From: Tubulanus polymorphus
Taxonomy: Eukaryota > Animalia > Nemertea
DNA length: 64,000 bases
Assembly: GCF_964204645.1 (NCBI RefSeq)
Contig: NC_134036.1
Span: forward strand, 7,912,812 to 7,976,811
Direction of reading: 5' to 3'
Below are positions 16,899 through 58,175 of the stretch, in pieces. How positions within the stretch are numbered: position 1 is the first letter of the stretch; each line of letters opens with the position of its first letter. The position numbers were made by a program, and so were the translations under genes. The notes below the pieces were generated by a model. That model saw only the letters and a list, made by a program, of their open reading frames with translations. It ran no database searches and had not been told where the DNA came from.

Positions 16899-16930
16899 AA
16901 TTTTAACTTTAATAAAAATATATATAATAA

Positions 16931-17695: not shown

Positions 17696-17839
17696 TTCAA
17701 ATAATAAAAATAAATTGGTTGAAAATTGTATAAATAATATTTATTTTAAAAAAGGGGCTTTTAAGTATTTAAGGTATCTAATAGGGTATCAGGTATTGGG
17801 GTATCTAATAGGGCATCTAATACATAAGTATATAAATAG

Positions 17840-18451
17840 TTATTTTATAAATTTATTTTCATATGGAAATTGTAATCTCAGTAATAATTTTGAACCTTTA
17901 TTATTCTTTAATTTATTCATATATTCATCATATAATTCAGTAGGTATAATTTGATTTTCTTCCAATGATTGTTGCATAGATTTTCTATCTTTATTGTAGA
18001 ATAAAACTAGAAATCTCATATTCTCCCTAAAGTCTTTAACAATTGAATAATATTTTTGATTTAAAACCCATGTTGTTATCCCGAAATGTCTTCCACAGAA
18101 AGCTAGATAACATAACTCACTTTCTCTAACTTTTGAATCATGTAAATTTGCGCGATCATCTACAATGAATAATGTATTTGATCCTTTATAAGTATCAATT
18201 GCTATTTTTATACAATTATCTAAATTTTCTTTTACTGTTTTAGGATCTAATATAATAAACTTTTTTATCTTAACTATATCTCTATTATATGTTTTATTCA
18301 TTTCATAAGTAGGACAGAATAATATTATATTATCAAAATGATTCTTATAAATAGTTTCTAACAAATCTAATATGAAATGTGTTTTACCACAGTTTGTTAC
18401 TCCAGTAACTAACATATTATGAGGTTCAAATATAAATAAATCTTTATTCAT
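17840..18451 (-). CDS. A32-like (FtsK/HerA) DNA packaging ATPase
   Basis: Walker A GVTNCGKT, Walker B LFIVDD, GRHFGIT motif. Confidence 0.92.
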   Translation of the reverse strand: MNKDLFIFEPHNMLVTGVTNCGKTHFILDLLETIYKNHFDNIILFCPTYEMNKTYNRDIVKIKKFIILDPKTVKENLDNCIKIAIDTYKGSNTLFIVDDRANLHDSKVRESELCYLAFCGRHFGITTWVLNQKYYSIVKDFRENMRFLVLFYNKDRKSMQQSLEENQIIPTELYDEYMNKLKNNKGSKLLLRLQFPYENKFIK

Positions 18452-19562
18452 TTATTCTTTTAATTTTACTAGATGAAATCCATTCATTAAATTTATCATC
18501 GTATCCTTTATATTTCACCAAAGAATACTTTTTCCCTTTAAGAGTTTTTTTTTTCAATACTTTTTCTATTTTGTATTCTATTTCATCTGGATTTGGTACA
18601 AGTGATAATTCTTGTTCATAGAAATAACCTAATATTTCTTCATCTTTTAGATCTTCTACTTTATAAACAAATGGTTTAGTTAATATTATCTTTTTAATCT
18701 TGAATATTTCTTCTGTAAAATTATGGGTATAACCTTTATAAAATGTTTTTCTATATTTAGATATTCTTACGTGTTGTCCTATTTTGAATCTAGGTTCACC
18801 GAAATCATGTGTTACAAACGCTCCATATAAATTATTCCAAACTATTTCTGAATTATCTTCTTTTCTAGCTTGTATAGGTTTCATATTTATAGAACTATGT
18901 TTAGAATTATTATAACCTTTCACTTAATCATCTAACACATCGATATATTTATATGTTTCATTAGCAGTAAAATATTTCCACATTCTAGTTTTCAATGTTT
19001 TATTAAATCTTTCTATAATAGATGCTTTTTTATCTGAGTGTGTTGAAAAATAATCTACATCGTTATCAGATAATAGTTTTTTAAAATGTTTGTTATAAAA
19101 TTCCTTACCTTCATCAAATTGTATCTTATCTGGAATAGATTCTTTAAATATTGATTTAAAAGCATTTGTCACTTCTATACCAGTTTTATTTTTGATTGGA
19201 ATTGACCATGCGTATCTACTGAATATGTCTATAACATTTAATATCCAGAAATATCCTTTGTTGTATTCTTCTAAGTTCTTCATGTCAATTAAATCAGCTT
19301 GCCATTGTTGATCGATATATGAAACCATAACTTTTCTTGTTAAATAAGTTTTATCCATTTTCTTATGTATTTGATATGTGGGTTGGTTTTGTAACCATGA
19401 TTTTAATTCACCATATTTTATACCACCGTGTGGGTGCCGTACGGCACCATTACCATTTTCATTATCAGATTTAATTTTATTCCATTATTCTGAAACGTTA
19501 GAATATGATACCTCACTTTCTGGGTTATAATATAACTCTCTTAAATATTGTTCTTTTTTCAT
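18444..19562 (-). pseudogene. Retroviral-like (RVE) DDE integrase with C-terminal chromodomain, two in-frame stops
   Basis: WQADLIDM, IDIFSRYAW, QFDEGKEF, IERFNKTLK; chromo-like IEKVL...YSLVKYKGYDDKFNEW. Confidence 0.93.
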
Positions 19563-19568
19563 CGTATT

Positions 19569-20020
19569 TTAATCCATTAATAATAATTTAGATTTAGTTT
19601 CAATGGCTTCATGATTTGACTTATTTTCTGGTATAATAGGTTTATTGTCATTGGAATCATATTTATCATCAGATTTGAATTTTGATTTATATATTACACC
19701 GGATACTATAATAACTGTTACTAATCTAATTTTAATATATAATTTATAATTACTTCCAGCATTAGAAGAATCAGATGGATTATTTTTTGAATCAATATCA
19801 GATAAAGTCTGTGATTCATTCATATCAGTTAATTTCTTTTTCTTAGCTTTTTTTAATTCTGAAGATCTTTTACCTAATTCTCTTGCCCATTTAATTTGTT
19901 TCTCTATATCAGTTAATTTCTTTTTCTTAGCTTTTTTAATTCTGAAGATCTTTTACCTAATTCTCTTGCCCATTTAATTTGTTTCTCGGATCTAGCCTTT
20001 TTCTCAACTCCATCACTCAT
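19569..20020 (-). pseudogene. Basic TM-containing hypothetical protein, disrupted by an ~83-bp tandem duplication (19822-19904/19906-19987)
   Basis: N-terminus MSDGVEKKARSEKQIKWARELG matches KKPRTQKQIEWSRQLG of 42149-42559. Confidence 0.65.
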
Positions 20021-20593
20021 TTATTTTAGTTAATTTTTGTTCTGATTCATTTTCTGTTTCGACCTTTGGTTGTAGTACATCTGTTTCGTTCTTACCTGAT
20101 TTATATTCCATAGGCTTGATGTTCGAAAATGTTATGACACCAGTAGAAATTAATGTCATAACAGATCCTAATTGAAATGAAGCATATCCAACCCATTTTT
20201 GTAATTCAGTCATAACTAAGTAGTCACTTTTCAAATCAGTATATAATTTATTTTCATCATCAATTGGTATTAACTGGTTACATAATTTTGAATAACATTT
20301 GACAATACCATCTGAAATAGAATCATTTATTCTAGCTAATCTTGACTCTTCATAAATCTTAAAATATTTTATTACTTTATCTGGTTTCATAGAGTCTAGT
20401 TCTTGAAAAGTAATGATTCTATTTAAAAACTCATTAGTTTTTCCACCGGCAATCAATAGTTCTATATGATGCTTACAATATAAATAGTATTCATAATCTA
20501 TATTGTTATTAACTTGAGTAGAATTAGAAACAACTGTATCTTTATCTTTGTCTTTTCAATATCAATACTATTCTTATTAGATTTCTTTGACAT
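20013..20593 (-). pseudogene. Conserved hypothetical protein (frameshifted near the 5' end)
   Basis: Homologous to 42492-43097 (YYLYCKH...RINDSIS...YSKLCN...FQLG). Confidence 0.7.
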
Positions 20594-20841
20594 TTATATT
20601 AGAGAAATTTAATAAGAAAAATATTATAAGTATTATAAAATGATACTAGCTAGTTAAAACTAAAGAATTCTAGTATTGACTACTGATACTAGCTATTTGA
20701 ACTTAAAGAATTTCTATTTGAATCTATTCAAAATATAAAGTATTCTCTTTTTGAAAAGAAAGTATTAAAAAAACAATAACTAATACTAGCTAGTTGAAGA
20801 TATGTAATTTTTAATACTTTTTATTTAAATTCTATTATTCT

Positions 20842-21645
20842 TTAACCACTCATTAAAGACTCAACGTATTGTTCATTATTTGGATCATTATTCCATAATT
20901 CAATGAATTTCTTTGCTTTATCTAATTGATCCAAATATTACTGTAAATCTAGTTTATTAAAATTTATTTTATTTTCTTTCTTTTCAAGAGGTCTTAAATT
21001 CTTCCAATTCCAAATTAACTTTTTATCATATTCATCATTCATGTCAAATTTAGAAATAGGCAACACATGATCAATATGAAAATAATTACCATGATTATTT
21101 ATATTCATTTTATCATCGAATTGAAATATAATCCATGATTTTAAGAATTCATCCGAACAACCCAATAAATTAGATAGTGTGTATGAGTGACTGTCTTTAC
21201 TGAATAATTGTGTTAATCTATTTATCAAACATTTTTTCATTTTAAAATTTAGATCTGTTTGATATTTTTCATTTTGATAATTGTTAATATTCTCTCTATT
21301 ATTTTCCCTCCATTCTCTCATATATTCTGGGTGATTTTCTCTCCATTCTCTCATATATTCTGGGTGATTTTCTCTCCATTGTTTATTATAAACTTTCCAC
21401 TTTTCTGGATTATTTTCTCTCCATTGTTTATCTTTTTCTTTATATTTTTCTGGATTATTTGCTCGATATTGTTTATTATATAGTTTATTACAAGTTTTGC
21501 AATAACAACTTTTACCATCTTTAGTTTTTTTATGTTTATTAAATTCTGTAAATGGCTTATTTATTTTACACTTATAACATGTCTTCTGATATATATTTAT
21601 TACACCATTATTGTTTATATTTATAGCTTGTGATTGTTCCTCCAT
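20842..21645 (-). CDS. HNH endonuclease of the NCLDV type, with N-terminal CxxC zinc ribbon and 11-aa repeats; premature stop at 20938
   Basis: CYKC...CKTC, (YMREWRENHPE)n, LLGCS..FLK.W...QF, HIDHVLP, NLRPLEKKEN. Confidence 0.8.
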
Positions 21646-21760
21646 TTATAATATATATTTTATTTAAATTAGGATTTAGATTATCTCACTACTATTGTTT
21701 ATCTATAGGAGCAGTAATTATAACTGTCCAGATAAGTCATTTCGGATCCTTGATATCAAA

Positions 21761-21964
21761 TTACTCAACGTATTGTTCATTATTTGGATCATTGTTCCAT
21801 AATTCAATAAATTTCTTTGCCTTTGTTAACTGTTCTGAATATAACTGTAAATATTCTAGTTTCAATTTATTATCTAAATGTGTTTTAGTTTTATTGTGTC
21901 TTGCTTTTTGGGATTTATCTATATTGATATTACATGTTGGACAGTAGTACTTATTTGCTTCCAT
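21761..21964 (-). CDS. Chimeric mini-ORF: pPolB first zinc finger (copied in the TIR) fused to an HNH-tail sequence
   Basis: MEANKYYCPTC...KLEY identical to the pPolB start, followed by LQLYSEQLTKAKKFIELWNNDPNNEQYVE. Confidence 0.5.
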   Translation of the reverse strand: MEANKYYCPTCNINIDKSQKARHNKTKTHLDNKLKLEYLQLYSEQLTKAKKFIELWNNDPNNEQYVE

Positions 21965-22633
21965 TTTAATATCAAATTTTTTATTGAAATTGAACATAAC
22001 TCTTACCTCTCAACGCGTCCCGCCACGTGTGAGTCCAACCACGTGTGAGTCCCGCCTATTTATACTACTAAACAGTGGGGAAAACCCAGCTGCGTGTTGA
22101 GACTTGTAAATTATGAGGCTTGTGATTGGCTAGTGTAATAGGGAATACTCAACTGTGATTGGATAGAGTAATACTCAACTGTGATTGGATAGATTAATAG
22201 TAAAATACTCAACTGTGATTGGCTGGAAATACTCAACTGTGATTGGATAGATTAATAGGGAATATTCAACTGTGATTGGCTGGAAATACTCAAATGTGAT
22301 TGTCTAGAGTAATACTCAACTGTGATTGGCTAATGTAGTTTTCTACATGGATGGTTCTAGAATCAACATGTAATACGCAATACTCAACGTGTTGAGGCTT
22401 GTAAATTATGAGACTTGTGATTAGATAGAGTAATAGGGGTTTAGTTGTTCTATATCAAAGGTTGAGAGGTCGAGGTTGATAAATTTTCCAAATGTTAAAA
22501 TAATAATAATTTCTACTTGAATTAGGAGTGTACGCGACTAATTCAAGTAGAAATTATTGTTATTTTCACATTTGAAAATTTATCGACCTCGACCTTTCGA
22601 CCTTTGGTATAGAACAACTAAACCCCTATTACT
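21851..22633 (-). repeat. Right terminal inverted repeat of element 1
   Basis: Reverse complement of 5529-6287 with a small difference in CCAAT-repeat number. Confidence 0.95.
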
Positions 22634-40684: not shown

Positions 40685-40768
40685 AGTAATTGGGAAAGTA
40701 GGCTTTCAGATCAGAGGTCGAAGGTCGACCACTCATCACCACAAGTATTTTTTTTTCCTAATAAATGG
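40685..40768 (+). repeat. 84-bp TIR of element 2, ending on the TAAATG start of the terminal gene
   Basis: Reverse complement of 58092-58175 with about 3 mismatches. Confidence 0.95.
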
Positions 40769-41091
40769 GAGATAGAAAAGCATTCTTAGCAACAATAAAT
40801 AACAGAATTAAACCAACAAAAAAACAATTTGAAATAAAAAAGTTAGTTGATGTTACAAAAGAAATCGAACATAAGATATTGAAATTAGAAAAGATAAAAA
40901 CTAAATATGGAGAGAAAGTATCAGCTAATTTAAGCTACTGTAATGTTAGTACATCACGAGAATTTAAAGTGTTTTTACCCGATAAATGGGTTTCATTGAG
41001 TACAGAGGAATTGAAAGATTTAGTAGGATTTAAAATAGTATATCATGGGAAAAATGAAGACGGTCATCATGATTTGGAAATTGTTGATTAA
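40765..41091 (+). CDS. Small conserved Polinton protein (homolog of 10213-10566)
   Basis: TKYGEKV...FKVFLPDKW...IVYHGK. Confidence 0.6.
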   Translation: MGDRKAFLATINNRIKPTKKQFEIKKLVDVTKEIEHKILKLEKIKTKYGEKVSANLSYCNVSTSREFKVFLPDKWVSLSTEELKDLVGFKIVYHGKNEDGHHDLEIVD

Positions 41092-42148
41092 ATAAAAAAT
41101 AAAAATAATGAATATCTAAAAATGACCTTAGTCGTTTTATAAACAACTACAATCATACAGTCAAACATCTGTTACATGTTATTATGAGAGAGTGCTTCAT
41201 TTGAATATTAATCAATCAAACAGGTGTTGCACAACGTTGTTGTTATATTGGATAGCTAGCAGTTATATATTAAGCACGCAGTACATACAACACACACAAG
41301 CCAGTTAGCCGGCATTGAACCACCACGTTTTCATTGGTTGCTGAAAGCGAGGTTTATTTAAATTAGCTCGGCCGTGACGACAGGAGGATAGTTATCATTC
41401 TCTCGTGATTAAAAGGAATATTTCAATGTTTTTACGGTAAGTTTTAGCAAAACCACCCGACTTGACTCGCAGAGTTTTTAGGGGATAAGCATCCCGTTAT
41501 TGAGAGGCGCCACGAGATACCTATCCCCAAGCATTTCTACTTACACCCCTGTGACCCACGCCTCACCAATTCTCCTTCAATGGTTGACAGGAAACACATT
41601 ATATTTAAGGCGCCTTATGCATTTCCTATCAACCCCTTACCCCCGAAAAGAGGACTGAAGGAGAACCACGGAGGGTGGACAAAGGTGCATTTTCGAAATG
41701 CCCCTGCAAGCCAAGCCCGGCGGCACTCCAGTGGTTGAATGAATTGCCTTATATACTTAGCTAAAACACCTAAGTAAATGTTGCTGGTGCTAAAAAAATA
41801 TGTGAAATTTGAAATTATAAATTATTTCGAATGAAAAGAATATAAGAATGAAAACTGATAAATGAATTATGGATTTTTAACTTAATTATGATATAATTTT
41901 TAATCAAATTAGTAATCAATTACTATGTTAATTGATTAACAAATTCAAATTCAAATATTCATTTTAGCATACCCAGTGTTGTCATCTTTCAATTTAAGAA
42001 AAAACTAATAATAAGAAACGACTGTAATACAATATTCAAGTAAAAACAAAATAAATTGATAAAAATAATGAATATCTAGAATCCGAAATGACTTATCTGG
42101 ACAATTTAATTGCTCCGCATAGATAGACAAAAGTAGTGAGATATTTAA

Positions 42149-42559
42149 TTAATTAAAAAAAATTATTTTTTTTTGCTTTTTTTCTAAAATATTAATCCAT
42201 TTTTTTATTATCAATTTTGGAATTTCAGAAGTACTTTCATTTTTGATAGCAGTTGGTTCAGAATTACTAATATCATGAATTTTATTTGATTTCTTATACC
42301 AATTACACCCAATCAAAATGAATACAATTACAAATCCAACTGTAAAATATAAATATTTATAAAATATTCTATTATCAGAAGGAGTAGAAATAACAATATT
42401 TTCACCATTTTTATTAACATTTTTATTACTTATTTTTTCTTTTACAGATTTTTTATATTCTTGTGATTTAATTCCTAATTGCCGAGACCATTCAATTTGT
42501 TTCTGAGTTCTCGGTTTTTTCTTCACAGTTAATTCCTTCACTTCTTTCACCTCGCTCAT
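42149..42559 (-). CDS. Basic protein with one TM helix
   Basis: Homolog of 19569-20020. Confidence 0.65.
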   Translation of the reverse strand: MSEVKEVKELTVKKKPRTQKQIEWSRQLGIKSQEYKKSVKEKISNKNVNKNGENIVISTPSDNRIFYKYLYFTVGFVIVFILIGCNWYKKSNKIHDISNSEPTAIKNESTSEIPKLIIKKWINILEKKQKKIIFFN

Positions 42560-43097
42560 TTATTATAGAAATATTTTTACTTTCAATATTTGAAAATGTT
42601 ATAACCCCAGTTGATAATAATGTCATAAATCCACCTAATTGAAACGATAAATATCCAATCCATTTATTTAATTCAGTCATAACTAAATAATCATTTTTTA
42701 AATCGGAATATTATCTATTTTCATCTTCAATTGGTAGTATATAATTACATAATTTACTATAACCTTTTACTACATTTTCTGATATCGCGTCATTAATTTT
42801 AGCTGTTCTCGCGGCTTCATAAATCTTAAATAATCTAATAATTTCATCTGATTTCATTGTATCTAATTCATTATAAGTTAAATTTTTACCGACAAAATTT
42901 TTACATTTTCCAGATGCTATTAATATTTCTAATTGATGTTTGCAATAAAGATAATATTCATAATTATTATTTGTTGTAACATTATTTAAAGCACCATCAT
43001 CTGGAATTAATTTGTTTTCTGTTATTCCTAAATCATCTAAAGTTTTTTCAATTGGAACATCACCATTTTTAGATTTTATTTTCTTTTCACCTACCAT
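42492..43097 (-). pseudogene. Conserved hypothetical protein with one in-frame stop (42711)
   Basis: Homolog of 20013-20593. Confidence 0.7.
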
Positions 43098-43124
43098 TTA
43101 TATAACAACAAAATTAGTTGTGAT

Positions 43125-43401
43125 GTTGCAACTAGAATTCAACTAGAATGTAACTAGAATTCAAATTGATTAACAAGCTAGTTGAAATATTGTTGTTTTT
43201 GTTTATTTCTTGTTAAATCTAGTTGATTTTTGTTTCAACTACTAACAACTAGAATTCAACTAGAATGTATCTAGAATTAAACTAGATTAACAAGCTAGTT
43301 AAAATATTGTTAAATCTAGTTGATTTTTGTTACAACTACCAATAACTAGAATTCAACTGGAATGTAACTAGAATTCAACTATATTAACAAGCTAGTTGAA
43401 T
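43125..43401. repeat. Intergenic CAACTAGAATTC / CTAGTTG repeat cluster (three blocks)
   Basis: Direct and inverted short repeats between the ATPase stop and the next start. Confidence 0.8.
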
Positions 43402-44010
43402 TTAAATAAATTCATATTTAAAATGGTGTTGTAATCTAAATAGTAATTTTGATCTTTTAATTTTTTTCAACTTATCCATATATTCATTATGTAAATCATG
43501 TGGAATAATATCATTTTCCTCAAGTGCATTTTTCATTGATTTTCTATCTTTATTGTAGAATAAAACTAGAAATCTAATGTTTTCTCTAAAGTCTTTAACA
43601 ATTGAATTATATTTTTGATTTAAAACCCATGTTGTTATCCCGAAATGTCTTCCAGAGAAAGCTAGATAACATAACTCACTTTCTCTCACTTTTGAATCAT
43701 GTAAATTAGCGCAATCATCTATAATGAATAATGTATTTGATCCTTTATAAATATCAATTGCTATTTTTATACAATTATCTAAATTTTCTTCTACTGTTTT
43801 AGGATCTAATATAATAAATTTATTATTTCTAGTACTATTTCTATCATAAGTTTGATTAAATTCATACGTTGGGCAAAATAATACTATATTATCAAAATAG
43901 TTTTCATAAACAGTTTCTAATAAATTTAATATAAAATAAGTTTTTCCACAATTTGTTACGCCAGATATTAACATATTATGAGGCTCAAATATAAATAATT
44001 CTTTATTCAT
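43402..44010 (-). CDS. A32-like DNA packaging ATPase (intact)
   Basis: GVTNCGKT, FIIDD, SGRHFGIT. Confidence 0.93.
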   Translation of the reverse strand: MNKELFIFEPHNMLISGVTNCGKTYFILNLLETVYENYFDNIVLFCPTYEFNQTYDRNSTRNNKFIILDPKTVEENLDNCIKIAIDIYKGSNTLFIIDDCANLHDSKVRESELCYLAFSGRHFGITTWVLNQKYNSIVKDFRENIRFLVLFYNKDRKSMKNALEENDIIPHDLHNEYMDKLKKIKRSKLLFRLQHHFKYEFI

Positions 44011-45138
44011 TTATATATTTTTAATTTTACTTGGTAATATCCCTTCATTGAATTTATCTGGCCATCCAACCCATTTTACTAAAGAATATTTTTTTCTTTT
44101 AATAGTTTTTGTTTTTAATACTTTTTCAATTTTATATTCTTGTTCTAGATTTTCAGTAGTTAAACTTAATTCTTCTTCGTAAAAGTAGCCATCAACTTCT
44201 TCACCATCTAAATCTTCTAATTCATAGACATATGGTTTTGTTGTTATTTTGTTTTTTATTTTATATATTTCTCTAGTAAAATTTCGATCGTATCCTTTAT
44301 CAAATATCTTTTTATACTTAGAAATTCTAACATTTTGACCAACTTTCAATTTAGGTTCACCAAAATCATCTACAAGAAATGCTCCATATAAATTATTCCA
44401 AACAATTGCAGCATTTTCAGGTTTTCTAGCATCAATAGGTTTCATTCCAATAGAAGAATGATAAGAATTATCATATCCTTCTATCAATTTTGGTAAAACA
44501 TCAATCCATTTAAAAGTATTATTTGCTGTAAAATATTTCCAGATTCTTGTTCTTAATGTTCTATTAAATCGTTCAACAACTGCTGCTTTTTTATCTGATT
44601 TTGTTGAAAAATATTTAATATTATGATTATCTAAGAGTTCATGAACAAGTGAATTATCAAACTCTTTTCCATCATCAAATTGTATTTTTTCTGGTTTTAG
44701 TTTATCATCCGAAAGAAATTTTCTTAAAACATTTGATGTTTGTACAGCATCTTTTCTATAAAGTGGGAAGCTCCATACATAACGACTAAAAATATCAATT
44801 ATATTCAATAACCACCAATAATCATCATTATCTTTCTTAACATTTTTCATATCAATTAAATCTCCTTGCCACTGTTGATCTACATAACTTACCATAGTTT
44901 TACGAGTTTTATATTTTCTAACAATTTTTTTATGTGTTGTATATGTTGGTTGTTCTAACATAAATTCATTTATATCTTTATATTTAACTAAATTCTGTGG
45001 GATTATCTTATCTAATTTATCTTGTTTTACTTGACGCCATATATTTCTAGTAGAAGAATAAGCAACTGAACTCTCAGGGTTGTAATATGAATTTCTTAAA
45101 TATTGTTCTTTAGTATTATGAGTTTTTGTACCACCCAT
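44011..45138 (-). CDS. RVE integrase with chromodomain (intact, 375 aa)
   Basis: WQGDLIDM, QFDDGKEF, VERFNRTL; YSLVKWVGWPDKFN. Confidence 0.95.
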   Translation of the reverse strand: MGGTKTHNTKEQYLRNSYYNPESSVAYSSTRNIWRQVKQDKLDKIIPQNLVKYKDINEFMLEQPTYTTHKKIVRKYKTRKTMVSYVDQQWQGDLIDMKNVKKDNDDYWWLLNIIDIFSRYVWSFPLYRKDAVQTSNVLRKFLSDDKLKPEKIQFDDGKEFDNSLVHELLDNHNIKYFSTKSDKKAAVVERFNRTLRTRIWKYFTANNTFKWIDVLPKLIEGYDNSYHSSIGMKPIDARKPENAAIVWNNLYGAFLVDDFGEPKLKVGQNVRISKYKKIFDKGYDRNFTREIYKIKNKITTKPYVYELEDLDGEEVDGYFYEEELSLTTENLEQEYKIEKVLKTKTIKRKKYSLVKWVGWPDKFNEGILPSKIKNI

Positions 45139-45168
45139 TTATATATCCTTAATTTTAACTTTATATTT

Positions 45169-46416
45169 CTAATATTGAATACTATCTAATTGTGAATTTA
45201 CAATATTTAATTGCGCGTCAGATATAATATAAATGTGCATTTTGAAATTTTTGTCCCCTCTTTTCTTCGCCATGAATAATTGTATTCCATCTTTAGTGTT
45301 TTGTAATTTTTTTCCAGAACCATGTAATGAATTATCCTCTGTTGTTCTAAAATCTAACCATAATGCATATTTATTGCCGGTATAATAATCAATTTGATTA
45401 ATATTACAATTTTCAAATGATTTTACTTTTTCATTCATAAAATGTTTTCTAATTTCTGGCCACTGATCTATCATTCTCATTCCTTGGCAAAATATTTTAT
45501 TTGCTATTCCTTCGATAGTTATTTCTACTTTTGTTATTTCAGGATTATAATAATTATCTACCTTTATTGCACCATTAGAATATGTTGCAATGGTGAAAAA
45601 TATTAATATACCTTTAATAGATCTTCTTGGGAAGTAAATATTCTCATTAATTATTTCATCATTTGCATTAATAGTTACGGTTTTAAATTTATCAATATAA
45701 TCATATAATAATGAAAGTCCTTGATTGTATTAAGTTTGAATTGTGCTAGCAATATTTTCATTAGTTACTGTGTTATATTCTAAACATATATTCGATAATT
45801 TATAACCCATATCTTTAACAACGCTAGATAATACAATTTCATTTACAGGAGCAAATGTTATCTCAAATATAATATCTTCTTGAATTGCGTATTTATATAA
45901 AGGTGCATTATTATTTATCAATTCAAAGTCTAATGGAATTTTATATTTGCTTCCATAAATCTTTTTAATCAAATTATCTGTGGCACGAGTTACTATTGCG
46001 TCATTAGTTCCTGATCTTAATTTATTATGGTTTTCGGATTGAATACCCTGAAATATCATATTATTTCTATTTTCTTTAGTTAACCATAAATCTTTATAAT
46101 GCATAAATAAATTATAATCATCTAATGAGAAAACTGTTTCCGGACCAATCTTTATAGTTAATTTTTTAATCAAATATCTTCCAACATTATCAACAACGTA
46201 ATTGTTATCATGGCCATTTACTTTTATATCGGCTGATAAATAAATACTATTTGGAACATAAAAAGTATTTTGTGTTAATCGAGGAATTCTAACATATAAA
46301 GTTTCATCGGGATTAATATTTGAAGGGTTATGAGTAATTATATGATGTGATCTTTCTGCTTTAATAGCATTAGATATTCTAGAAATCTTAGAAGGACTTA
46401 TATAACTCCCACTCAT
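45169..46416 (-). pseudogene. Putative major capsid protein, disrupted
   Basis: Near-identical to 15651-16898; stop at 45730. Confidence 0.7.
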
Positions 46417-46440
46417 TTATTAAACAAAAAAATTAATTAT

Positions 46441-48186
46441 TTATTTTTTATTATTTTTTTCTTGATATCTTTTTGATATCATATTTACTAACCCAAAAAT
46501 AATAGCACTTACAACTGTAATTAAAAATAAAATAATATGTTCAGCAGCAAAGTTAAGAATATTCCCAGCAGATTTCAATATAAAACCAACAATTGATGCA
46601 ATAACTCCTGGTAAAGCTGCAGCAGATTTTTTAGATAGTTCCCATAAATATTTTGCTAATTTCTTTAAACCATCCTTAACTTTATCTTGTATAGAATTAT
46701 TATCATTCGGGGGTTTATCTGGTTTATTGGGAGTAGGAGTAGATTTCAAAGCATTTGATATTGCTAAACCAATTGTTGTAAATTACATAGTTACAGCTGT
46801 TAGAATTGAAAGAATTGTTATTCCTTCTAATTTAAATAATAACTTTATTCTATCTTTCAATGATATTTTAGAATCTGGTTTTATCAACAAATCTTTAAAA
46901 ATAACTTTTAATTTTTTAATATGATTAAGATCATATGATTTTAATAATGTATCTCTTTCTTTTTCCTGTAATTCTTTGTTATATTTTAAATCATCTCTTT
47001 CTTTTTCTAAAGCTAACTTTCTGCTTTCATAATCAGCTTCCTCGATTAATTGAATATCTCTATTTAATTCTAATTGTTTTAATTCTTCATTTGCATTAGT
47101 TAATTCTTTTTCTAACATGGTTATTTTAGAAAATCTCATCTTAATATTAGCAATTTCACCAGCTGATTCTTGCATACCTTTAATTTCTCTACGTGCTTGT
47201 TCAGGAAATGCTTCTAATTCATCATCAGTTAACTGAGGCATCGACAACGAAGAAGAAGGACTTGTTCAGTAATTGTTCCCGATTTTCTTTTGAAACGATG
47301 CTCAATGTCTTCATTCGATAAACAGGTATGTCCATCAACTTTGAAGAAAGTTACGCTTGAATCAAGTATTCCTTTTTCTAGTAAAGATAGTATTCGATTT
47401 ATTCCAGTTTCAGTACCGGGTGTATCTAAAATACTATTCATCTCTTCGTCAAATGAATGAATTGTATCAAACATTTTATCAAAATGTTTTACTACTTGTA
47501 ATTGATTTGAATCATTATCAATTTGTTGAATATCTCTTCTAGATGTTTCGGGTGTTGAAGATCTTAATTTATCTAATCGATCTCTATTCTCTTCCATTTC
47601 CGTTTCTGGATTATCATCGATTATTTTAAATAAGTCATCAATTCTTTGTTTGAATTCTTTTCTATTTTGTTTTTATTTCTTTTTGTGTTACATCAGTTAT
47701 TTCATTACTATTAATTATTCTCTTAATTCTATCTGGTTCTAACTTAAGCAAAGTTGATTCTGCTAATATTATATTTTGATTTTTATAAGAGATGTTAATA
47801 TAATAATCATCTTTCAATTTATAATAATATTCACCATCTAAAAACTTTAAATCTTGTACTAAAAGTCTGGCGCCTCTATCATTTATATTATATCCAGATC
47901 TTACAAATACATCTTGAAACTTATATATAAATTTATTATTTTCTATATCTTCCTTTGATAAACCTGGCATTTCATTTTCAGGATTTATTTTCGATCTAGT
48001 TCTTCTATCAAATTCATCTGTTGATGGGACTTTAGAACCACTATCTGCTAAATTAGAATCATATGCTGATTCATCATCATTATCAATATTAGTTTCATTA
48101 AAATCAGGTTGTGGTTCATCATCAATGTATCCTTCATTATTATTTCCCATGTCATCCAATGGAAAACCTTCTCCACCTTCTGCCAT
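46441..48186 (-). pseudogene. Coiled-coil protein with C-terminal hydrophobic helices, disrupted
   Basis: C-terminus near-identical to 15173-15610; N-terminal and central parts diverged and longer. Confidence 0.75.
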
Positions 48187-48202
48187 TTACATAATAAAAA
48201 AA

Positions 48203-49572
48203 TTAAAATTTAAAATATAATATTCCTCCGATTACAATTCCTATACAAGTTATAGCTAATTTAGTATTTTCATGGGATTTATTATCATCATTTAGTTTAA
48301 TTATATCATGTTGAATAATATCAGTTTCTATATCTTCTGATGTATTATAATCCGGTTTAGAATCATTATTTAATTTAATATTTTTAGTTTTAGTTTCAGT
48401 TGATTGAATATGTTTTTTATTTTTTTCACCTTCCATTAATTTTGGAGCAGTAATAATCTTTTTATTTATATCATTTAATCCAAATGAATTATTTATTGTT
48501 GCAGTTTTAATTAGATTATTATAACCAATTATATTTCCCATCTTTAATACTAAATCATTAGAAATAATTATTAGATTAGGGCCTATACAATAATTTAATC
48601 TAATATGTGATTTATCTAAATAATCTTGATATCTTATAATGTTTTCTGGAATCGATCTATTTTTATCATTATGAATTGAATCTTCAAATAAAACTTCAAA
48701 TTGTTTCTGTGTATCGAATGATGTATTCAAATTTCCAATTATTGGTGATCTTGTTTCAACTTGCGCACCTAAAATACATATCAAATAAGTTCTAATAGAT
48801 TGATTTATTCTTTGTATACCTGATTTAGTAAAACCTTCATTATTTTCTAAAATGAAATAAACCCAACCATTATTGTTTTCTTGTTTTAAATTATCATAAA
48901 ATGTCAGTAATTTATTAAAATTTAATGTTTCTAAATCCTAAGTTTCTATTTTACCATAACCTAATTTATGACTATAGATATTATACAAACTATTAGATGG
49001 TATGGGAAGTGCACAATATTCTGCAATCTTTTTAGGGCAAGGAAGTGATCTTATTGTTCCAATTTTTGTTCTAAAATCAGAATTATTTATATCTATATTA
49101 AATTCATTACAAATTTTATAAAACTTTGATAAATTAATATTATTATCTAATTCTTTAAAATATCTTGATCCTGGTAAAGCGCACTCTAATTCATTTAATA
49201 TTATTCTTATTTAAAAGTATGTATGAAATCTAAATAAACTTTGAATTAATTTATATTTAGAATTATTCAAATGATCATTCCAACTAATTCCACATCCTGT
49301 TGTTGCACAATAAACAGCAATATTTAATTGGTTCTGCCAATACTTCATATTAGATTTTAATAACCATTGTTTTTCATCTTTCAATTTTTTACATGAAATA
49401 TATTTTCCATCTTTACATGAAAATTATTACTTTCAGTAACATAAATATATAAATCAATTAATGAATTTAAAACTTCATTTCTATATGTAATATCTTTATT
49501 AAAATCTATTGCTGGAATATTATATTTAATTGATTTATTATATTGGAAAGCTTTTGGAAAACTATCTGCCAT
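48203..49572 (-). pseudogene. Ortholog of the 441-aa TM-anchored protein, disrupted
   Basis: Both ends near-identical to 12848-14173. Confidence 0.75.
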
Positions 49573-49588
49573 TTATATAATTAAAAAA

Positions 49589-50014
49589 TTAATAATTTAT
49601 TAATTCTTTTAATAATTTATCTTGTTCTTCAACTGTTATATGACCATTTAAACTTATTATATAAACTAGTGTATTCTTTAATTTATCAATTTCTTTTATA
49701 TTAGTTTTAATTTTTTCTTTATTACTTTTTATATTTAATTTTGAACTTTTAACGGTTAAAACACTTGAACTTAATCCTAATACACCAATTGATATAGCTA
49801 AAGGTGTTAATGGACTGAATATTGCTAGAAATGTTATTACAGGACTAATTGTAACCGAACCACTAATAATCAAATAATATATAATTTTACTTTTTAAATA
49901 TTTTTTCTTTTTAACTTTTAAATCACTTTCAAATTCTAATATTTGTTTTTCTAAATATATTCTTAATTTAGTTTTATTTATATCATGAGGAATAATATCA
50001 ATATTATCTTCCAT
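49589..50014 (-). CDS. Two-TM membrane protein
   Basis: Ortholog of 12397-12831. Confidence 0.75.
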   Translation of the reverse strand: MEDNIDIIPHDINKTKLRIYLEKQILEFESDLKVKKKKYLKSKIIYYLIISGSVTISPVITFLAIFSPLTPLAISIGVLGLSSSVLTVKSSKLNIKSNKEKIKTNIKEIDKLKNTLVYIISLNGHITVEEQDKLLKELINY

Positions 50015-50033
50015 TCATTTAGAAAAAAAATTA

Positions 50034-50456
50034 CTAATTAGTAAACTTATAAGCAACAAATATAACAATAACAGTTCCACCTAAAATCCAAATTATTTCA
50101 TATTTCTGTTGTTCTTTACTTGGGGTATAATAATCTGATAATTTAGGTTTGTATAGATGTAATTTTTCTTTATTTGTTACTGCGTTATATAAACTCATTG
50201 CATCATCAACTGATTGAAAATCTCTATGTGAAATCTTCTGATCATATAATTCTTTATTCATGTAATCCATATAGTTTTGTCGTTTTTCTCTATATTCTTC
50301 TGCTGCTTTATTGTATTTCTCTAATGCTAAAATATGTCTTCTTTGTTCTCCTAATGAACTATTTTTATCAATATGTTTAAATAAATATCCACCACCAGTA
50401 AATGCTAAAGCGTTAACAATTGCCGATCCTATAATAGTTATAATTGCAGAAGCCAT
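50034..50456 (-). CDS. Putative membrane protein
   Basis: Ortholog of 11958-12392. Confidence 0.75.
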   Translation of the reverse strand: MASAIITIIGSAIVNALAFTGGGYLFKHIDKNSSLGEQRRHILALEKYNKAAEEYREKRQNYMDYMNKELYDQKISHRDFQSVDDAMSLYNAVTNKEKLHLYKPKLSDYYTPSKEQQKYEIIWILGGTVIVIFVAYKFTN

Positions 50457-50480
50457 TTATTTAGCAAAAAAATTATGCAT

Positions 50481-50702
50481 TTATATGGGAGGAATATATT
50501 TTTGTTTTTCCAAATAATTAATAGTTAAATTAGATAAAGTAACTGCTAATGTTAATTTTAAGATATCATTGATATCAAATCTATCAACATTAACACTTCC
50601 CATTTTGAATACTTTTTTTAATACCATTGAATAACCAACAGTTCCAACTGATAGTAATGCGCCATTATATAATCCAGTTATTATCAAATTATTATCACTC
50701 AT
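50481..50702 (-). CDS. 73-aa hydrophobic protein
   Basis: Ortholog of 11712-11933. Confidence 0.75.
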   Translation of the reverse strand: MSDNNLIITGLYNGALLSVGTVGYSMVLKKVFKMGSVNVDRFDINDILKLTLAVTLSNLTINYLEKQKYIPPI

Positions 50703-51059
50703 TTATTTATCAAAAACATTACTATCATCAAAAAATTTAGTTAACTTATTTATGATTGATTCAACATTTATTTCATTACTAGTTTCATTTGTATATATTT
50801 CAATTATTCTTTTTTTAATATCATCGATGATAAAATCTTCATCTAATTCATAAAATCTTAGAGATTCTCTAATTAAATTAGTAATCTTTTCTACATTTAA
50901 AGTTTCTTTATCTATTGTTGTTTCATACTCAAATGTTGTTTCATTAGAAAATGCAATATTTTTAATATGTGTAATTACATCAGTAATGTTAAATTTCATT
51001 TCTTTCTCACGTTTAAAATCAAATCCAAAACATATGCTCGGCCCAACAGTTATATTCAT
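50703..51059 (-). CDS. 118-aa hypothetical acidic protein
   Basis: Ortholog of 11355-11711. Confidence 0.75.
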   Translation of the reverse strand: MNITVGPSICFGFDFKREKEMKFNITDVITHIKNIAFSNETTFEYETTIDKETLNVEKITNLIRESLRFYELDEDFIIDDIKKRIIEIYTNETSNEINVESIINKLTKFFDDSNVFDK

Positions 51060-51075
51060 TTATATAATGAAGAAA

Positions 51076-51832
51076 TTACTCTCTACATCTTATAACTAAT
51101 TCATATATTACAGGAAAGTTATTCAAATCAATTAAATAACCATTATGATTTCTTATTTCTAATTTAAAATTATTGAAATGTGGAATACAAGGTTTGAAAT
51201 CACATTCTGTTAAATTATAATTTATTTGCGCTCCAAATTGTTTAACATTCTTCAATGGTAAAATATTTAATATACTAGAATTACATGTTGTATCTTTAGT
51301 TGCTTCAAATGTTTTTGTAGGATCAATTAAATTGCAATAAATATAAGTGTGTAAAAGGTATTATATTTGAAATGCCTTCTACGTTTACTGTAACAACATC
51401 TGGTGCAATTCCTAGCAATTTAGCTAATGGTTTTTTTACTATAAATGCATTTTGACTTTCATCAAATACCTTTATTTTAATTTTATTTGAGCTATCACTT
51501 TTTATAAATCTTATTAAAAATTTATCATCTTTTCTAATTTTCAACCGTGCTCTACGATTAATTTCTTGAGCTAATGTTTCTAAATTATATAATCCTGGTC
51601 TTAGAAATAGATGAAACCATTTATTTATATTTCTAATATGAATTAAAAAAGTATTATGTTCAATAGTTTTATTCGATATATTATAAAAAGAATTACATAA
51701 ACTTATATTAACTAATTTTAAATCTACACAATTCTTAAATTCTCTATCTAATTGTACTAGTAAATTTTGAGATTTATAATTTGTAAGTTTTCTTGAATCA
51801 ACAAATATTCTGTATTCTTTCAATTCTACCAT
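51076..51832 (-). pseudogene. Minor capsid (penton) protein, frameshifted
   Basis: Ortholog of 10581-11337. Confidence 0.7.
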
Positions 51833-51900
51833 TATTTATAACATAAAAAAATTACCGCTCATCACTAAAAATTAATTTTAATAAAATTTTTCCTAAATAA

Positions 51901-52842
51901 ATGGATGAGAAGATAGCATGCGAAATTTGTGGTGAACTTCTAAGAAAAAGTAATATGGCTCGACATATGAAAAAACATGATGAAAATTATAAACCCCCTA
52001 AAATAAACTGCCCAAAATGTAATAAATTATTCTCAAGAAATTATGTTAAAAAACATTCAGAGAAGTGTAGAATTAATGGTGCAACGGCTAATGTTGATAG
52101 TAATGAAAGTAATAGTAATTCTGCCGAAGTTGAACCTGAAGTTATTTGGAAAAGACCTTTCTTATTCTATGATAAGGATAATATAAAAGATCATTTCTGT
52201 GAGCCTTGTCGAATAAAATATAGCCCTGAAAATATAGAAGATTGGGAGAATCATCAATTTCGTAAAGCACATATAGATAAAATTTCTAATAAATTTGAAA
52301 CTGAATTCAATGAAAGAAAAAATAATTTATTAGAAAAAATAAAATATGAGAAAACGTAACCAGATAATAAAGAAACAGTTGAAAAGTTAGAAAAACAATA
52401 TAATGAATTAACAAGAAAAAAATATTATTGTAAATATTGTAAATTGATTATTACAACAAGTAATTCAAATCTACATAATAGAACAATAAAACATAAAGAA
52501 AACGTAAGAAAATACCAGGAGCTTAATGAAGATATATTACCAATAAATTATAAACGAAAATGTCCACAATGTAGTTATGCGACCTTAAGACAAGAAGGTA
52601 CTGTGTTATTTTGTAATGAATGTGGATGGCAAAAGAATTTATTGGGTGAAGAAAAAACTAGAGATTTTCTCATAGATCCAAAATTAAATTATCTAGATGA
52701 AATTTTTAAAATATTTTCTATGGAAGATCATACACCAGAATATATGCAATGGCTTGAAAAAATGAAAATAATAGAAAATAAAAATGGTGAAATAACTAAA
52801 AAAGATATTATAAATACAATTATTCCGTCAACATTTAATTAA
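51901..52842 (+). pseudogene. Multi-zinc-finger protein (probably one frameshifted gene)
   Basis: CEIC...HMKKH, CPKC...H, CEPC...H...H, CKYC...H, CPQC...CNEC motifs; TAAATG start. Confidence 0.65.
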
Positions 52843-53019
52843 CACAAAACAAAAGAAAATGTATTTATATTTATTATTTAACGATTATTATGAAAAACCT
52901 AAATTATCAGAAGATACGGAAAATATAAAAAAAATATTCAAACAAATATTAATGTATCATTTAGAAAATAGAATAACAGATTCAATAAATTATGAATTCT
53001 TTTTAAATAAGATTGTAAA

Positions 53020-56000
53020 TTATTTAAACATAGATATTATAATTCCATAAGGTAATGTTTTTATACCATCATCTAAAATATGCCTTTTATCATCAAATGG
53101 ATTTAAACTAGTTTTTTTCAACTTCATTAATGTACATCTCATGATCTTCTGATCTTAAACAATTCATTTTGTGTTTCATTACAATTGATTTATATAAACA
53201 CTATATAATCTTGAAATTCTATATGTTTATCAACCACATGTTTTGTTATTCCTTTTAACTTTTTAGCTTCATGATCTTTTGTTCTGTAACTATACATTTT
53301 ACTTCTTATCCCAACAAATTGAATCATTTCATCACCCCCTAATTCATCTTTAAATTTACCAGGAATCTTTTTATTATCATTGCTAAATAGTTCATGATCT
53401 TTGGGATAATTGCTAAAATCAAAATGATGTTTTAATGTTTTTAAGTCTTTTGTTATGTCATTTGTCTTGATTTTTAGTATGTAGGCGTCAGTATTTTTGG
53501 CTATTAATGGAAATCCACAGTTAAATGTACCATCTTCAGTTGATAAATCATAAACATAATCTGTTGGGTTATATATTTCAAATAAATCTTTAACTTCTTC
53601 AGTTAACTCATTTTCTACATGGCTTAAATTAAAGCAATTTGGTTTAGATTTAATCAATCCAATATTCATATTAAAACCTAATGAATTGCATAATATATTT
53701 AATCCTGATATAGCAACTTTTCCTTTTTGAGCTAAAGATATTGTTTTGCGGTTTTTGAAACTTTTAGTACCATCGGCTGCGTAGAATCCAATGAAGAACC
53801 ATTTTCTTAAATTATTTTTTGCATTTAATACATAATCTGGAACTATCTTTTCTTTAGTTGAAGTATTACTTTTCACTATTGCATGAATATAGAATTCGTT
53901 ATTATATTTTATAGCAAAATCTTTAGGATTATTCACATGTATTCTATAACGTTGCGATGATTTCATAACATCTATGATTTTGAATGTTTTATGTGAATAA
54001 ACTTCTTCACAGAATTTCTTAATTCTTTCTAATAATTTTAAGTCTTGATTGCATAAATACCAGCAATATTGAGTGCGATTAACATAATTATACACACCTG
54101 CTGAACCATCACCCATGAAAAATCCTTTGATAAAATATTCTTTTTCTTCTAATGTTTCGGGTTCTATATTATAAATATTATCAATTATTTCATCAAATGA
54201 CATATGATTCATTCTTTGGAAAAATCTTTTATGTAATAATTCATCTCCAATTTTTATATCAGTTGGTTTTATTTCATCGCCATTTCGTTTAATTAAACTA
54301 TGATCTTCTGTAACATCTACGAACCCTAATTTAGTTCTAACTCTATAGATTTTATTATTTGTTTTATGTCTAATAATATTCTTTAATTTTTTCCATCCAT
54401 TTCTTGTCCAAACATCCATTAATCCATTTATTTGTATTAATTATTTTTCTCCATATGAAATATAACATTCATTTTGTTTTGGAATTATTTCTGAAATTCT
54501 TCTTATCAATATTTTATCATTACATTTTAATAATATTGGGGTGTCAGCTGTTACAGAATCAAAATATAATATTCCAATATGCTTTTCCCCAAAAAGTGGT
54601 TGTAAAACATTATAATAAAAATCATACATTAATAATTTTGATACTTCTAAAACAGTCGAACCAATAAATATAGGTTTATTAAATTTCATTGATGTTCTTT
54701 TTAATTTAACAGCTGTTAAATAATCTTCAAATCTTTTATTTCCTAAATGTCTAGGACTTGATTGTAAATGTCTTAATCTTTCAGAATTATTTACTAATTC
54801 AATATCATTTCTATTTCTAATATTTTCACGTTTTACCATAAAAACTATTATTCATTAATTTGAAGAAATCTTTTTCAAAATCTGTTTTTGATATTGTTCT
54901 CTGTTGAGTATTGAAATCTATATATTTTTCTAACCACTTCGATTGATTAAATTCAATATATCTATGTACTTTCTTTAATTTCATTCCTTGTTTTGGATAA
55001 AATTTTAACATTCTATAATGAACAATATAATTGTATTTATTATTTTGAGTAAGTATTAATTTTTCTGGAAAAACATGATCTTTCGGTTTTATTTTCTTCT
55101 GGTATTCACTTAAATAACTATCATCTACAGTTAAATGTTCTGGGCAATAAGGTAAGTTTCTTGTTTTAAACTTTATATTTTCAGGATATTCTAAATCAAC
55201 TACAAAGAAATAACCAATTGGTGCTTCATCTTTTGAACTCGCAATTGCGCTTTCTCAATCAGTTTTATCATCATTTTCAACTTCTGTTAATATAAAATTT
55301 TCATATGGTTGAGGTTGCATCATTGCCCAACCATATAAATTATTGGCGTCAATATATAATAATTTATATTCATCATTTGCTTTAAAATACCTATCTCCCA
55401 TAACACCACTAATTCCACCTCTAATTGATTTTTCAAATAATAAAACCATATCTGGTTTTTTTAATAAATCTAATTCTACATTTGTATATTTTAAACCACA
55501 TTGCCAGGTTAAACCAGGACTAGAGTAGCAATAACAAGGATCAACATTAAAATGATTCAAATTAACTTCTCTAAATTTTTCAAATATGTCAGCCAATATC
55601 ATAACGTCTGATTTTAAATATAAATCAACTAATTCACCATGGTTTTTCATCTTAAAATGGTTCCAAATATTTAATGTTCTATTAAACACTTCGTCTTTCA
55701 CATACTCCTCTTTTAATTGATTATAAAATTGATCTTTTAATAATTCTGTTACATTAAAATCATTGTGTGTTTTATAAAATGAATAAGGAATTGCACCTTT
55801 ATATCTCAATAATTTAAAATCTTGTTCATTTGGATAATAATATCGAGTTATAACAAAATCATTATCAACTAAACTTTTTGATAAATTATCTAATGAACTT
55901 GCTAGAAATCTATAAGAATCTAAAAATCTAATGCAACCAAATTGAAATGAAATATAATTTTCAGATGTTTTAGCTAATAGTTTAAAATCATATTTTCTTA

Positions 56001-58095
56001 CATTTACACCATTCATAGCATTATATTCTTCTATTTCTTGATTAATTGCGCCCAATTTTCCCGATAATTGTTTTATAAATAGATGGGTATCATAGCCTGA
56101 TAAATTATGAAATAATATTGGTACGAAATTAACTTTCTTAGCTTGTAAATTGCAATCTTCATGAGCAGCTCCACGATATTCTGAATTTAAATGATCATGA
56201 TCTCTAACTCTTTTATCAAATGAATTAAAACGTTTTTCACAATAACAACAATGAGTTGCATAATTAAAATCAATTTCATCTTTTGTCATAACTATTCTTT
56301 TATTTTTGTTTAATAATTTTGCAAAATCACTTTTTAATTCAATCATTTTATCACAAAAATCATTAACTACATTTTCACCTCTAAAAGAAATATATTGACT
56401 TTCATATAATTCAGGATAATTTGATTTTATATAAATTCCATAAGCAGCAGCTCTTTGATGAACTTTTTTAATTGTATTTATAATTGGTGGGTCTTGTATT
56501 GTGTCTTCATTTAATTCATTTCCTTTGTCCATTGATTTTAATAATTGCTTTTTGTTATATATTTCTTTTCTATCTTGATCAGTTAATTCTTTATTCAACG
56601 ATTCAAAATCCCCATAAATTACAAATGGAACAATATTCTTAAATTTATGATTAGTAAGTTTCAATTTATAATCTTTTTCTGTTGGCATTATTAATTTACA
56701 AAAATCTTTATTATCACATAATTCTTTATATTTTAGTAATGTATTCTCAGTCATAAATTTAGATAAACATTTTCTACATAGATAAATTTTATTATGGTGA
56801 TCACTTTCTGTTCTAAAGAATAAATCAATTTGTTTTAACCACATATAATGTTCATTTTCATCTTTTTTGTAATATAACAAATCTATAGCATTTTCATCAT
56901 CATAATATTCTGTTAAATATAAAGCTTCCAATGTATAATCTTTAATATTTTCACCTTTTGTCTTTGGTAATTGCATTAATTCGAATACATTTATTTTTAA
57001 ATTATTAACTTTTTCTATTTTAGAAATCATTTTTATAGTTACTGGATATTGATCAATTTTATATAATGTTTCATATTTCCGATAATCTGTTATTCTACAA
57101 ACATTTTCCTGTGTTGGACGTAAGCAACTAATAATTGACCATAGAAAACATTTATTATCTTCATTTTGAATATTTATTACTGCTTTTGTTGTAAATGGTA
57201 ATTAAATATAAGATGATGCTTTAATATCCTTTTCTGTTGTAAAGTTTGAATCATTTTTAAACATTTTATTACTTTTTGATGTTTTATTTCTTTTTGTATT
57301 ATAAACATTTAAATCTAAATATATAATTTCATTCAATGTTAAGCCAGAACCCTCAAAATATCTTTCTTCAATATGACGTTTAAATTCATTAAATATTTTT
57401 TCTAACTTCTCTTTTATATGTGTTTTTGAAATTATTTCTTCAGAGAGTGTTTGAATATTATAATCCATTTTATCTTCTGACTTTATAAAACTTACTTTCC
57501 CAGAGATACTAATTTTTGGATATTCAACATCTGTTATCAAATCTAGTATTTTTTCTATTATTTCATTAAATGTACTATAATCTTCTATTGTTGTACCTTT
57601 AAAAAATCTAAATATAATAGCTGCAGGACCAATTTTACTATGTAATGTTTCTAAAATTTCAATTGTATCTTTTATTTCTAGTGAATCAATATAATTTCTA
57701 ACATTTTCCATGTATGGTTTATTTGAAACGGATTTAGTTTTTGAAGTTGATTTTTTTACTTGTTGAGGTTTATTATCAAAATATTCTGATCCTAAAACAT
57801 TTTTATTTAAATTTTTATAATGTTTTTGTGATTCGAGATGTCTATTATAATTCCCTTTTACTATAAATTCATTACAAACTTCACATTTTATTTCATCCAC
57901 ATTCATATTTTCTAATCGTTCTTTTCTTTCATTGGAATTTTCTGGAGTTTCAAAATCTATTACATTTTTTATATGATTTGCAGATTTTTCATGTCGTGAT
58001 TTTTGGGATTTATCGATGTATTTTTTACAATATTGACAATAATATTGATTTTTATTGACATTTTTATTGACATCTGGCTGTGGTTCATTCTCCAT
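53020..58095 (-). pseudogene. Protein-primed DNA polymerase B containing an intein, disrupted
   Basis: YIDANNLYGWAM, KLMNNSFYGK, YFD|intein|TDAY, KKLKGI, NPFDDKR; N-terminal Zn fingers. Confidence 0.95.
53493..54557 (-). mobile_element. Intein with LAGLIDADG homing endonuclease (355 codons, one in-frame TAA at 54441-54443) in pPolB motif C
   Basis: Block A SVTADTPILL, block B VDVTEDHSL (TxxH), blocks C/E KGFFMGDG and IGFYAADG, block F YVYDLST, block G ...IAKN|T; absent at the same site in element 1. Confidence 0.93.
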
Positions 58096-58175
58096 TTATA
58101 AGGAAAAAACATTACTTGTGGTGATGAGTGGTCGACCTTCGACCTCTGATCTGAAAGCCTACTTTCCCAATTACT
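58092..58175 (-). repeat. 84-bp TIR of element 2 (polymerase end)
   Basis: Reverse complement of 40685-40768; includes the pPolB TAAATG start. Confidence 0.95.

Follow-up and report, generated by a model that had tools for sequence, protein, structure and literature searches.

A class-1 LAGLIDADG intein in the catalytic motif of a Polinton DNA polymerase from the nemertean Tubulanus polymorphus

Background

The window analysed here (64,000 nucleotides of Tubulanus polymorphus contig NC_134036.1, to which all positions refer) holds a viral-type DNA polymerase gene whose reading frame is split at its catalytic motif. The locus raises the question of what the inserted sequence is, where it came from, and whether it moves. 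An earlier note, made from the letters alone, read it as a giant-virus-type homing intein with an empty target nearby. According to passages of PMC5784728, inteins are absent from metazoan genomes, and viral inteins come from large DNA viruses.

Results

Anatomy of the insert

The insert is 1065 bp long (355 codons), in frame, and splits a protein-primed family B polymerase (PolB) at YFD/TDAY (slashes mark the insertion point). Its parts are the following:

53493..54557, minus strand: intein of 355 codons, a Hint splicing domain with an inserted two-motif LAGLIDADG endonuclease; one premature stop
54555..54557, minus strand: Ser1, the N-terminal nucleophile, adjoining the extein YFD
54441..54443, minus strand: premature stop at codon 39, largely private to the window copy (from reads)
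54300..54311, minus strand: block B TEDH (within DVTEDH), with T83 and H86
54105..54134, minus strand: first LAGLIDADG helix, FIKGFFMGDG, with Asp150
53769..53798, minus strand: second LAGLIDADG helix, FFIGFYAADG, with Asp262
53493..53498, minus strand: terminal Lys-Asn (N355), followed by Thr+1 of the C-extein

The anatomy given in the earlier note was confirmed throughout: an exact position between YFD and TD, Ser1, TEDH, two LAGLIDADG motifs, the Lys-Asn end, Thr+1, and a single nonsense codon in the intein. Block F reads YD, its Asp being D337, and the class-1 residue set is complete (S1, T83, H86, D337, N355, T+1). The penultimate His, a usual feature of class-1 inteins that is not obligatory, is absent; the window intein has Lys instead, as in Mimivirus. 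Removing the insert restores the conserved polymerase motif (YFD/355 aa/TD vs. YFDTDS), and the alignment covered the whole catalytic motif in 114 of the best 120 polymerase relatives listed.

Profile searches and structural modelling used the intein protein with X at the stop codon. The Hint/LAGLIDADG profile match that the earlier note had proposed as a check was obtained with Pfam LAGLIDADG_3 (PF14528, 31 bits vs. a cut-off of 22.5) and TIGR01445 (30.1 bits vs. 24.5); Intein_splicing (E 3e-6, 27.4 bits) stayed under its 35.8 cut-off for the window intein and was above cut-off for the relative P0256. The predicted structure had a pLDDT of 94.1 and a pTM of 0.92 with a 47-row alignment, and T83, D85 and H86 were nearly invariant in the alignment (47 rows). 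Its best fold matches were the archaeal PI-PkoII, TliVMA, PhoVMA and PI-PfuI and the yeast PI-SceI; the four top matches are intein endonucleases with E from 1e-16 to 1e-14 (2cw7, E 1e-16; 7qsu, TM 0.64/0.62). These proteins likewise combine a Hint domain with the two-domain LAGLIDADG fold, but their structural-alignment identity is 10-17% and they sit in other host genes and at other sites. All nine Polinton inteins that we aligned retain the two LAGLIDADG Asp together with the splicing residues. The insert is a genuine Hint/LAGLIDADG class-1 intein at the pol-c (YGD/TDS) site. That YGD/TD is a known intein site, as the earlier note had it, holds here too: the closest inteins occupy that same site.

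Host elements in the window

The interrupted gene belongs to one of two Polinton elements in the window:

40685..58175, minus strand: element 2, a complete 17.5-kb Polinton/Maverick; terminal inverted repeats of ~85 bp, 6-bp target duplication CACATT
53040..58095, minus strand: protein-primed family B DNA polymerase of element 2, the intein host gene (PF03175, E 5e-14)
45169..46416, minus strand: probable major capsid protein of element 2, split between two ORFs (weak Capsid_N match, E 0.002)
44011..45138, minus strand: rve integrase of element 2 (PF00665, 41 bits)
43402..44010, minus strand: A32-type packaging ATPase of element 2 (PF04665, 45.9 bits)
5529..22633, plus strand: element 1, a 17.1-kb Polinton; 785-bp inverted repeats, 6-bp target duplication AACAAC
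9655..9672, plus strand: empty site YFD/TDS of element 1, reading YFDTDS uninterrupted

Both elements show the Polinton/Maverick hallmarks (15-20 kb, terminal inverted repeats, 6-bp duplication). In element 2 the repeats start with AGT and their first 63 bp are identical. An adenovirus-type protease gave no profile match among the 15 ORFs scanned. Besides the stop in the intein, the element 2 polymerase is broken by stops at 57204 and 55257 and by frame changes near 54829 and 53200.

Element 1 carries an intein-free polymerase of a divergent subfamily, likewise broken. The uninterrupted YFDTDS reported in the earlier note is indeed there, and its identity to element 2 extends from 16 nt upstream to 6 nt downstream of the junction (a 22-nt core), with the next codon differing. 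The two elements are mosaics, with 90-93% identity in two central blocks, 77% in the ATPase-integrase block and 73-77% at DNA level in the polymerase; therefore these families recombine. Because the polymerase DNA is merely 73-77% identical, the empty site of element 1 lies in a different polymerase subfamily, and it is not the nearby empty allele that the earlier note had taken it for. The nearest relatives of the element 1 polymerase are all empty. Close to the site, elements 1 and 2 are more alike (87% and 83% over the adjoining 100 bp), but we do not read this as a sign of conversion, since other 100-bp windows reach 82-84%.

The ATPase-integrase block is also inverted relative to the polymerase between element 1 (17840-19385) and element 2 (43402-44952), and the two polymerases are far more diverged than the central blocks, a pattern of module swapping. 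At window positions 1-450 (minus strand) begins a third, element-2-type Polinton, with a terminal repeat remnant and the 5' end of a polymerase; it runs off the window edge and may hold a further intein copy. Decayed capsid/integrase fragments at 26500-28840 and 36430-40050 are 91-93% alike and ~77-84% identical to elements 1 and 2.

The element 2 family in sequencing reads

Mapping at 88% likeness used about 12% of read run X6 (organism A). Read depth was 140, 173, 238 and 233 across the intein vs. 267-292 in adjoining bins, so roughly half to most subfamily copies carry the intein; alternatively, the dip may come from divergence or deletion. At the intein stop (54443), 202 of 206 reads differ from the window copy, and most reads have a differing base at its other breaks. 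The family is multicopy and mostly intein-bearing, and the window copy is one of its decayed members. Some 1-2% of the reads share several private letters of the window copy, which suggests, as a rough estimate, some tens to a few hundred copies. Moreover, 404 reads run past the element end with an agreement of 0.36, as expected from numerous insertion sites. Of 68 joints in the reads of organism A, the best 15 include none that skips the intein, and therefore no empty allele of the element 2 subfamily was seen among them. Contigs of X1 and X2 contain a 212-nt deletion inside the intein.

Relatives among Polinton polymerases

The intein search gave 41 matches, the best being pieces of Polinton polymerases with an intein in the same position. 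Among longer proteins there were 1412 matches, and the best 120 added unbroken polymerases including P0260, P0256, P0268, P0269 and P0276; P0075 was obtained through a cluster look-up. Identities of these same-site Polinton inteins to the window intein are 62% (P0260), 48% (P0256), 47% (P0046 and P0276), 41% (P0075) and 40% (P0269). Several intein-bearing relatives are unbroken frames of 1476-1693 aa with PF03175 or Endonuclease_7; P0260 is 1693 aa long, and P0256 (1537 aa) belongs to a cluster of 136 with contigs of up to 1 Mb. The intein is present in five of the best 120 polymerase relatives.

Eukaryote names among those 120 are limited to the corals Stylophora and Porites (38-42%). One relative among them bears a bacterial label, which we took as assembly contamination, and the intein-bearing relative P0266 is listed with the assembly of a clam gill symbiont. 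Polymerases of similar kind occur outside animals, according to passages of PMC8502044. Relatives' DNA gave no match in three locus scans of viral contigs and one of genome contigs, and a metagenome locus scan returned a single intein-free fragment of 1066 bp (L001). A PDB sequence search with the extein gave no match.

Residues before the junction vary widely in the intein clade (YMD, ASD, YLD, YGD; YFD/TDA in the window). In the proteins P0376-P0492 the catalytic motif is unusually variable, with FTD, YMD, GFD, ASD or YID before the junction and TDS, CDS or TDA after it, as expected if the site had long been under pressure from a site-specific nuclease.

Patchy distribution and a tract at the insertion site

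The tree of the N-extein core contained 15 filled and 51 empty polymerases and required at least eight changes; a single filled clade was rejected (AU p 3e-31). Its rows were hand-picked among search results, P0386 was left out because its site was unmatched, and P0412 and P0469 are partial-intein proteins. Intein and extein identities track each other in six of seven lineages (62/57, 48/51, 41/44, 70/75, 72/78). Thus, the intein has long resided in these lineages, with gains and losses between close relatives.

The P0256 cluster offers a closer view, with seven filled and six empty near-full polymerases that are 94-99.7% identical. From 15 listed proteins among the 136 cluster members we retained these 13, excluding the fragments P0361 and P0363, and compared them at protein level. 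Ten columns distinguish filled from empty copies, and all lie at -6 to +44 of the site (10/61 columns vs. 0/1060 elsewhere); the corresponding Fisher p of 1e-13 treats related columns as independent and is unusable as a probability. Upstream 50-residue windows of the 13 polymerases are 96-100% alike. The empty sites come in three versions: YTD/CDS, YFD/TDA and YGD/TDA. This tract fits donor co-conversion, selection for resistant targets, or both, and the seven filled copies may stem from one event.

A jump between polymerase families is suggested by P0276, one protein on one 5.3-kb contig. Its intein is 39-47% identical to the rest of the clade, but its N-extein gave no significant alignment to the others (E 0.007 at best). 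This polymerase also carries what we take to be a VSR-like motif. P0276 and the flank tract are indirect pointers to homing, in genomes other than that of the window.

Relatives outside Polintons and the putative donor

An exhaustive intein search gave 1958 matches, and the best 150 were mostly inteins of RNA-primed PolB at YGD/TDS, besides two Polinton pieces; the best blast identity of the RNA-primed PolB inteins to the whole intein was mostly 30-38%. Named viral members are Mimivirus R322 (38%) and ChoanoV1 (37%). The Mimivirus intein aligns with the window intein over 375 columns (E 2e-56) and spans residues 1053-1403 of R322, in agreement with passages of PMC549080. The two share the YGD/TDS site, Ser...Asn/Thr ends, Lys before Asn and two LAGLIDADG motifs. 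The length of the Mimivirus intein is also similar (351 aa vs. 355 aa), and the motifs that the earlier note had listed for it are all present in the window intein. The host genes differ: that of Mimivirus, a free giant virus, encodes an RNA-primed polymerase, and the one in the window encodes a protein-primed enzyme and belongs to a 17-kb integrating element on a eukaryotic chromosome. The Lys-Asn (KN) end, which the earlier note considered atypical, is common in the family (119/202 non-Polinton relatives) and uninformative; 17 of 20 Polinton inteins end in HN.

Polinton inteins form one clade in trees of 112 rows (support 99), 65 rows (99, quick version) and 42 rows (100/98), and in 100% of 200 bootstrap trees of the 42-row set. 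We rooted the intein tree on three inteins of other proteins, given the putative label 'TOPO' from their motifs. In the 42-row tree, the Polinton inteins lie inside a 99/95 clade with Mimivirus and ChoanoV1. Four donor placements were left standing: a viral clade ending in GFPL (p 0.44), Mimivirus (0.12), the outgroup (0.18), and asfarvirus-like rows (support 21/92). The short ending G-F-P-L, present in all but one of 20 Polinton inteins and in 59/202 others, hints at that viral subgroup. An asfarvirus-like sister group, with SH-aLRT of 89 and 82 in the 112-row tree, was set aside when it failed to recur in the 65-row and 42-row trees or in the placement tests. The protein P0130 is closest to PDB 8ywg, presumably the African swine fever virus enzyme.

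The link to nucleocytoplasmic large DNA viruses made in the earlier note therefore stood in part: the nearest non-Polinton relatives are in RNA-primed PolB and the two named ones belong to Mimiviridae, but four donor placements are left. Judging from the breadth of the family and the nesting of the clade, a giant-virus origin is our best guess. Comparing intein and extein phylogenies, as the earlier note had suggested, gave a similarly divided outcome, since the Polinton inteins are one clade but their branching largely tracks the host polymerases. A recent single giant-virus jump did not hold up; we found instead an old, Polinton-wide clade.

The intein family also occurs in four polymerases matching the phage family phrog_262, which we take to be 'T4-like'. 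The inteins of the phage-type polymerases P0110, P0112, P0332, P0341 and P0226 are nested among the giant-virus family in two places, a case of cross-domain intein transfer. Named phage genomes gave two weak matches (26-28%). Topoisomerase II-like proteins (P0257, P0225, P0239, P0117) carry the same intein family at a DxD site, and P0257 appears to hold three inteins.

Discussion

We propose, with a probability of roughly 0.78, that the insert is a class-1 LAGLIDADG pol-c intein of a Polinton polymerase, from an old Polinton-specific clade that likely persists by homing into closely related empty copies. We predict that precursors made from unbroken copies splice: an N-O shift at Ser1, aided by the block B Thr and His, would be followed by transfer to Thr+1 and cyclisation of Asn. 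This step is taken from class-1 chemistry, and the window copy, with its stop at codon 39, is unable to make a full precursor. Since splicing restores YFD-TD, it would be necessary for element replication. Once freed, the endonuclease would cleave polymerase genes that lack the intein in Polintons of the same genome, and when such a break is repaired on a filled template, the intein would be copied together with a short flank; the patchy distribution and the flank tract suggest both steps. The source of the clade was likely the RNA-primed family B polymerase of some large DNA virus, with a single entry, possibly in steps. A stepwise passage was argued for such distant sites by Ogata et al., in passages of PMC549080. 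Afterwards, the clade would have diverged alongside one polymerase family, with repeated gains and losses and at least one jump to a second family.

The same deep order of both trees, and the similar divergences of intein and extein, would also be expected of a passenger that entered once, still splices and has lost homing, the empty copies being products of loss or of normal recombination among variants of the polymerase. Long descent with losses suffices for this agreement, the families recombine in blocks regardless, and the 212-nt deletion in the contigs of X1 and X2 points the same way. We consider such passive descent unlikely: both catalytic Asp are retained and the Polinton rows include no mini-intein, at least eight gains or losses are needed, the sole diagnostic tract among the 1121 columns scored coincides with the insertion site, and P0276 requires a lateral step.

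Much less probable still is that a giant virus passed the intein directly to element 2 in a recent co-infection and that homing into element 1 is under way. The 38% identity to the Mimivirus intein at the same site and the 22-nt core shared by the sites of elements 1 and 2 speak for it, but the closest relatives are Polinton inteins (40-78%) in one deep clade, the intein has the same composition as its exteins (GC 0.25, GC3 0.15), and element 1 has a diverged polymerase from an empty group. The old, homing Polinton clade is thus the reading that we retain. Its fullest version is a living animal-genome intein of giant-virus type that splices from the Polinton polymerase, homes among endogenous copies, selects cleavage-resistant empty motifs, and has crossed divergent polymerase families and several animal phyla; we hold this version tentatively, at somewhat below even odds.

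Nucleases have been found in Polinton polymerases before. Passages of Jeong et al. 2023 (PMC10748475) and Krupovic et al. 2024 (PMC11161782) report HNH and VSR nuclease inserts in pPolB2, and the latter suggest that these derive from intein invasions. Those papers describe fused domains and mention no splicing domain, whereas the window intein has a full Hint domain with splice residues and interrupts the catalytic motif itself. A complete intein is thus now seen in a Polinton polymerase, where passages of PMC11161782 only suggested intein invasions. Passages of PMC10710043 report inteins of Anaeramoeba, and others that interrupt giant-virus polymerases endogenised in algae and protists. They are virus-type polymerase inteins on nuclear scaffolds, as here, but in non-animal hosts and giant-virus genes; the window system is instead a multicopy transposing element, with filled and empty targets within one nucleus. 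In the main text of that paper, the words 'Polinton', 'animal' and 'metazoa' are absent.

We found no report of a Polinton intein in the main texts of the open literature searched. The passages on 'intein' in PMC11161782, PMC12220804, PMC5718144, PMC3671162, PMC13768754 and PMC9939771 do not mention one, and the word 'intein' has no occurrence in the main text of PMC10748475 or in that of PMC8502044. This is a pol-c intein in a new host-gene family and, likely, a new host kingdom.

With this finding, the pol-c allele is no longer confined to RNA-primed polymerases but occurs in protein-primed ones as well, and a Polinton intein physically documents that genes were exchanged between two virus phyla at their one shared motif. 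It also matters for animal genomes, which had been described as intein-free in passages of PMC5784728. Since Polintons are multicopy, filled and empty targets share one nucleus, so homing and splicing in animal cells become testable from genome data. Moreover, splicing is needed to rebuild the active site, and conserved splice residues would therefore argue for elements that still replicate.

Other sequences in the window

Element 1 contains a 235-aa ORF (20938-21645) with a zinc-finger-like start, repeats of 11 and 15 residues, and an end that we take to be an HNH-like motif; it had no Pfam match, and a counterpart in element 2 was not found. The CpG observed/expected ratio is 0.67 in the intein, 0.54-0.59 in elements 1 and 2, and 0.8-1.0 in the flanks. 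The host DNA of the window is a ~29-kb repeating unit (2650-5530, 31040-34390, 60750-63760) with a 154-bp satellite (28830-31480, 40070-40490, 58595-61110), and the Polintons inside these host repeats may mark a preferred target region. We could place no host gene in the window; its richness in satellites, like the size of the Illumina run, would suit a large animal genome. A GC-rich remnant of a DIRS-like retroelement lies at 24400-25930, with RNase H-like and tyrosine recombinase-like frames. These frames had no Pfam match, and their look-alikes include Phage_integrase members. Those of the recombinase are eukaryotic, mostly from Mollusca or Cnidaria, and few in members.
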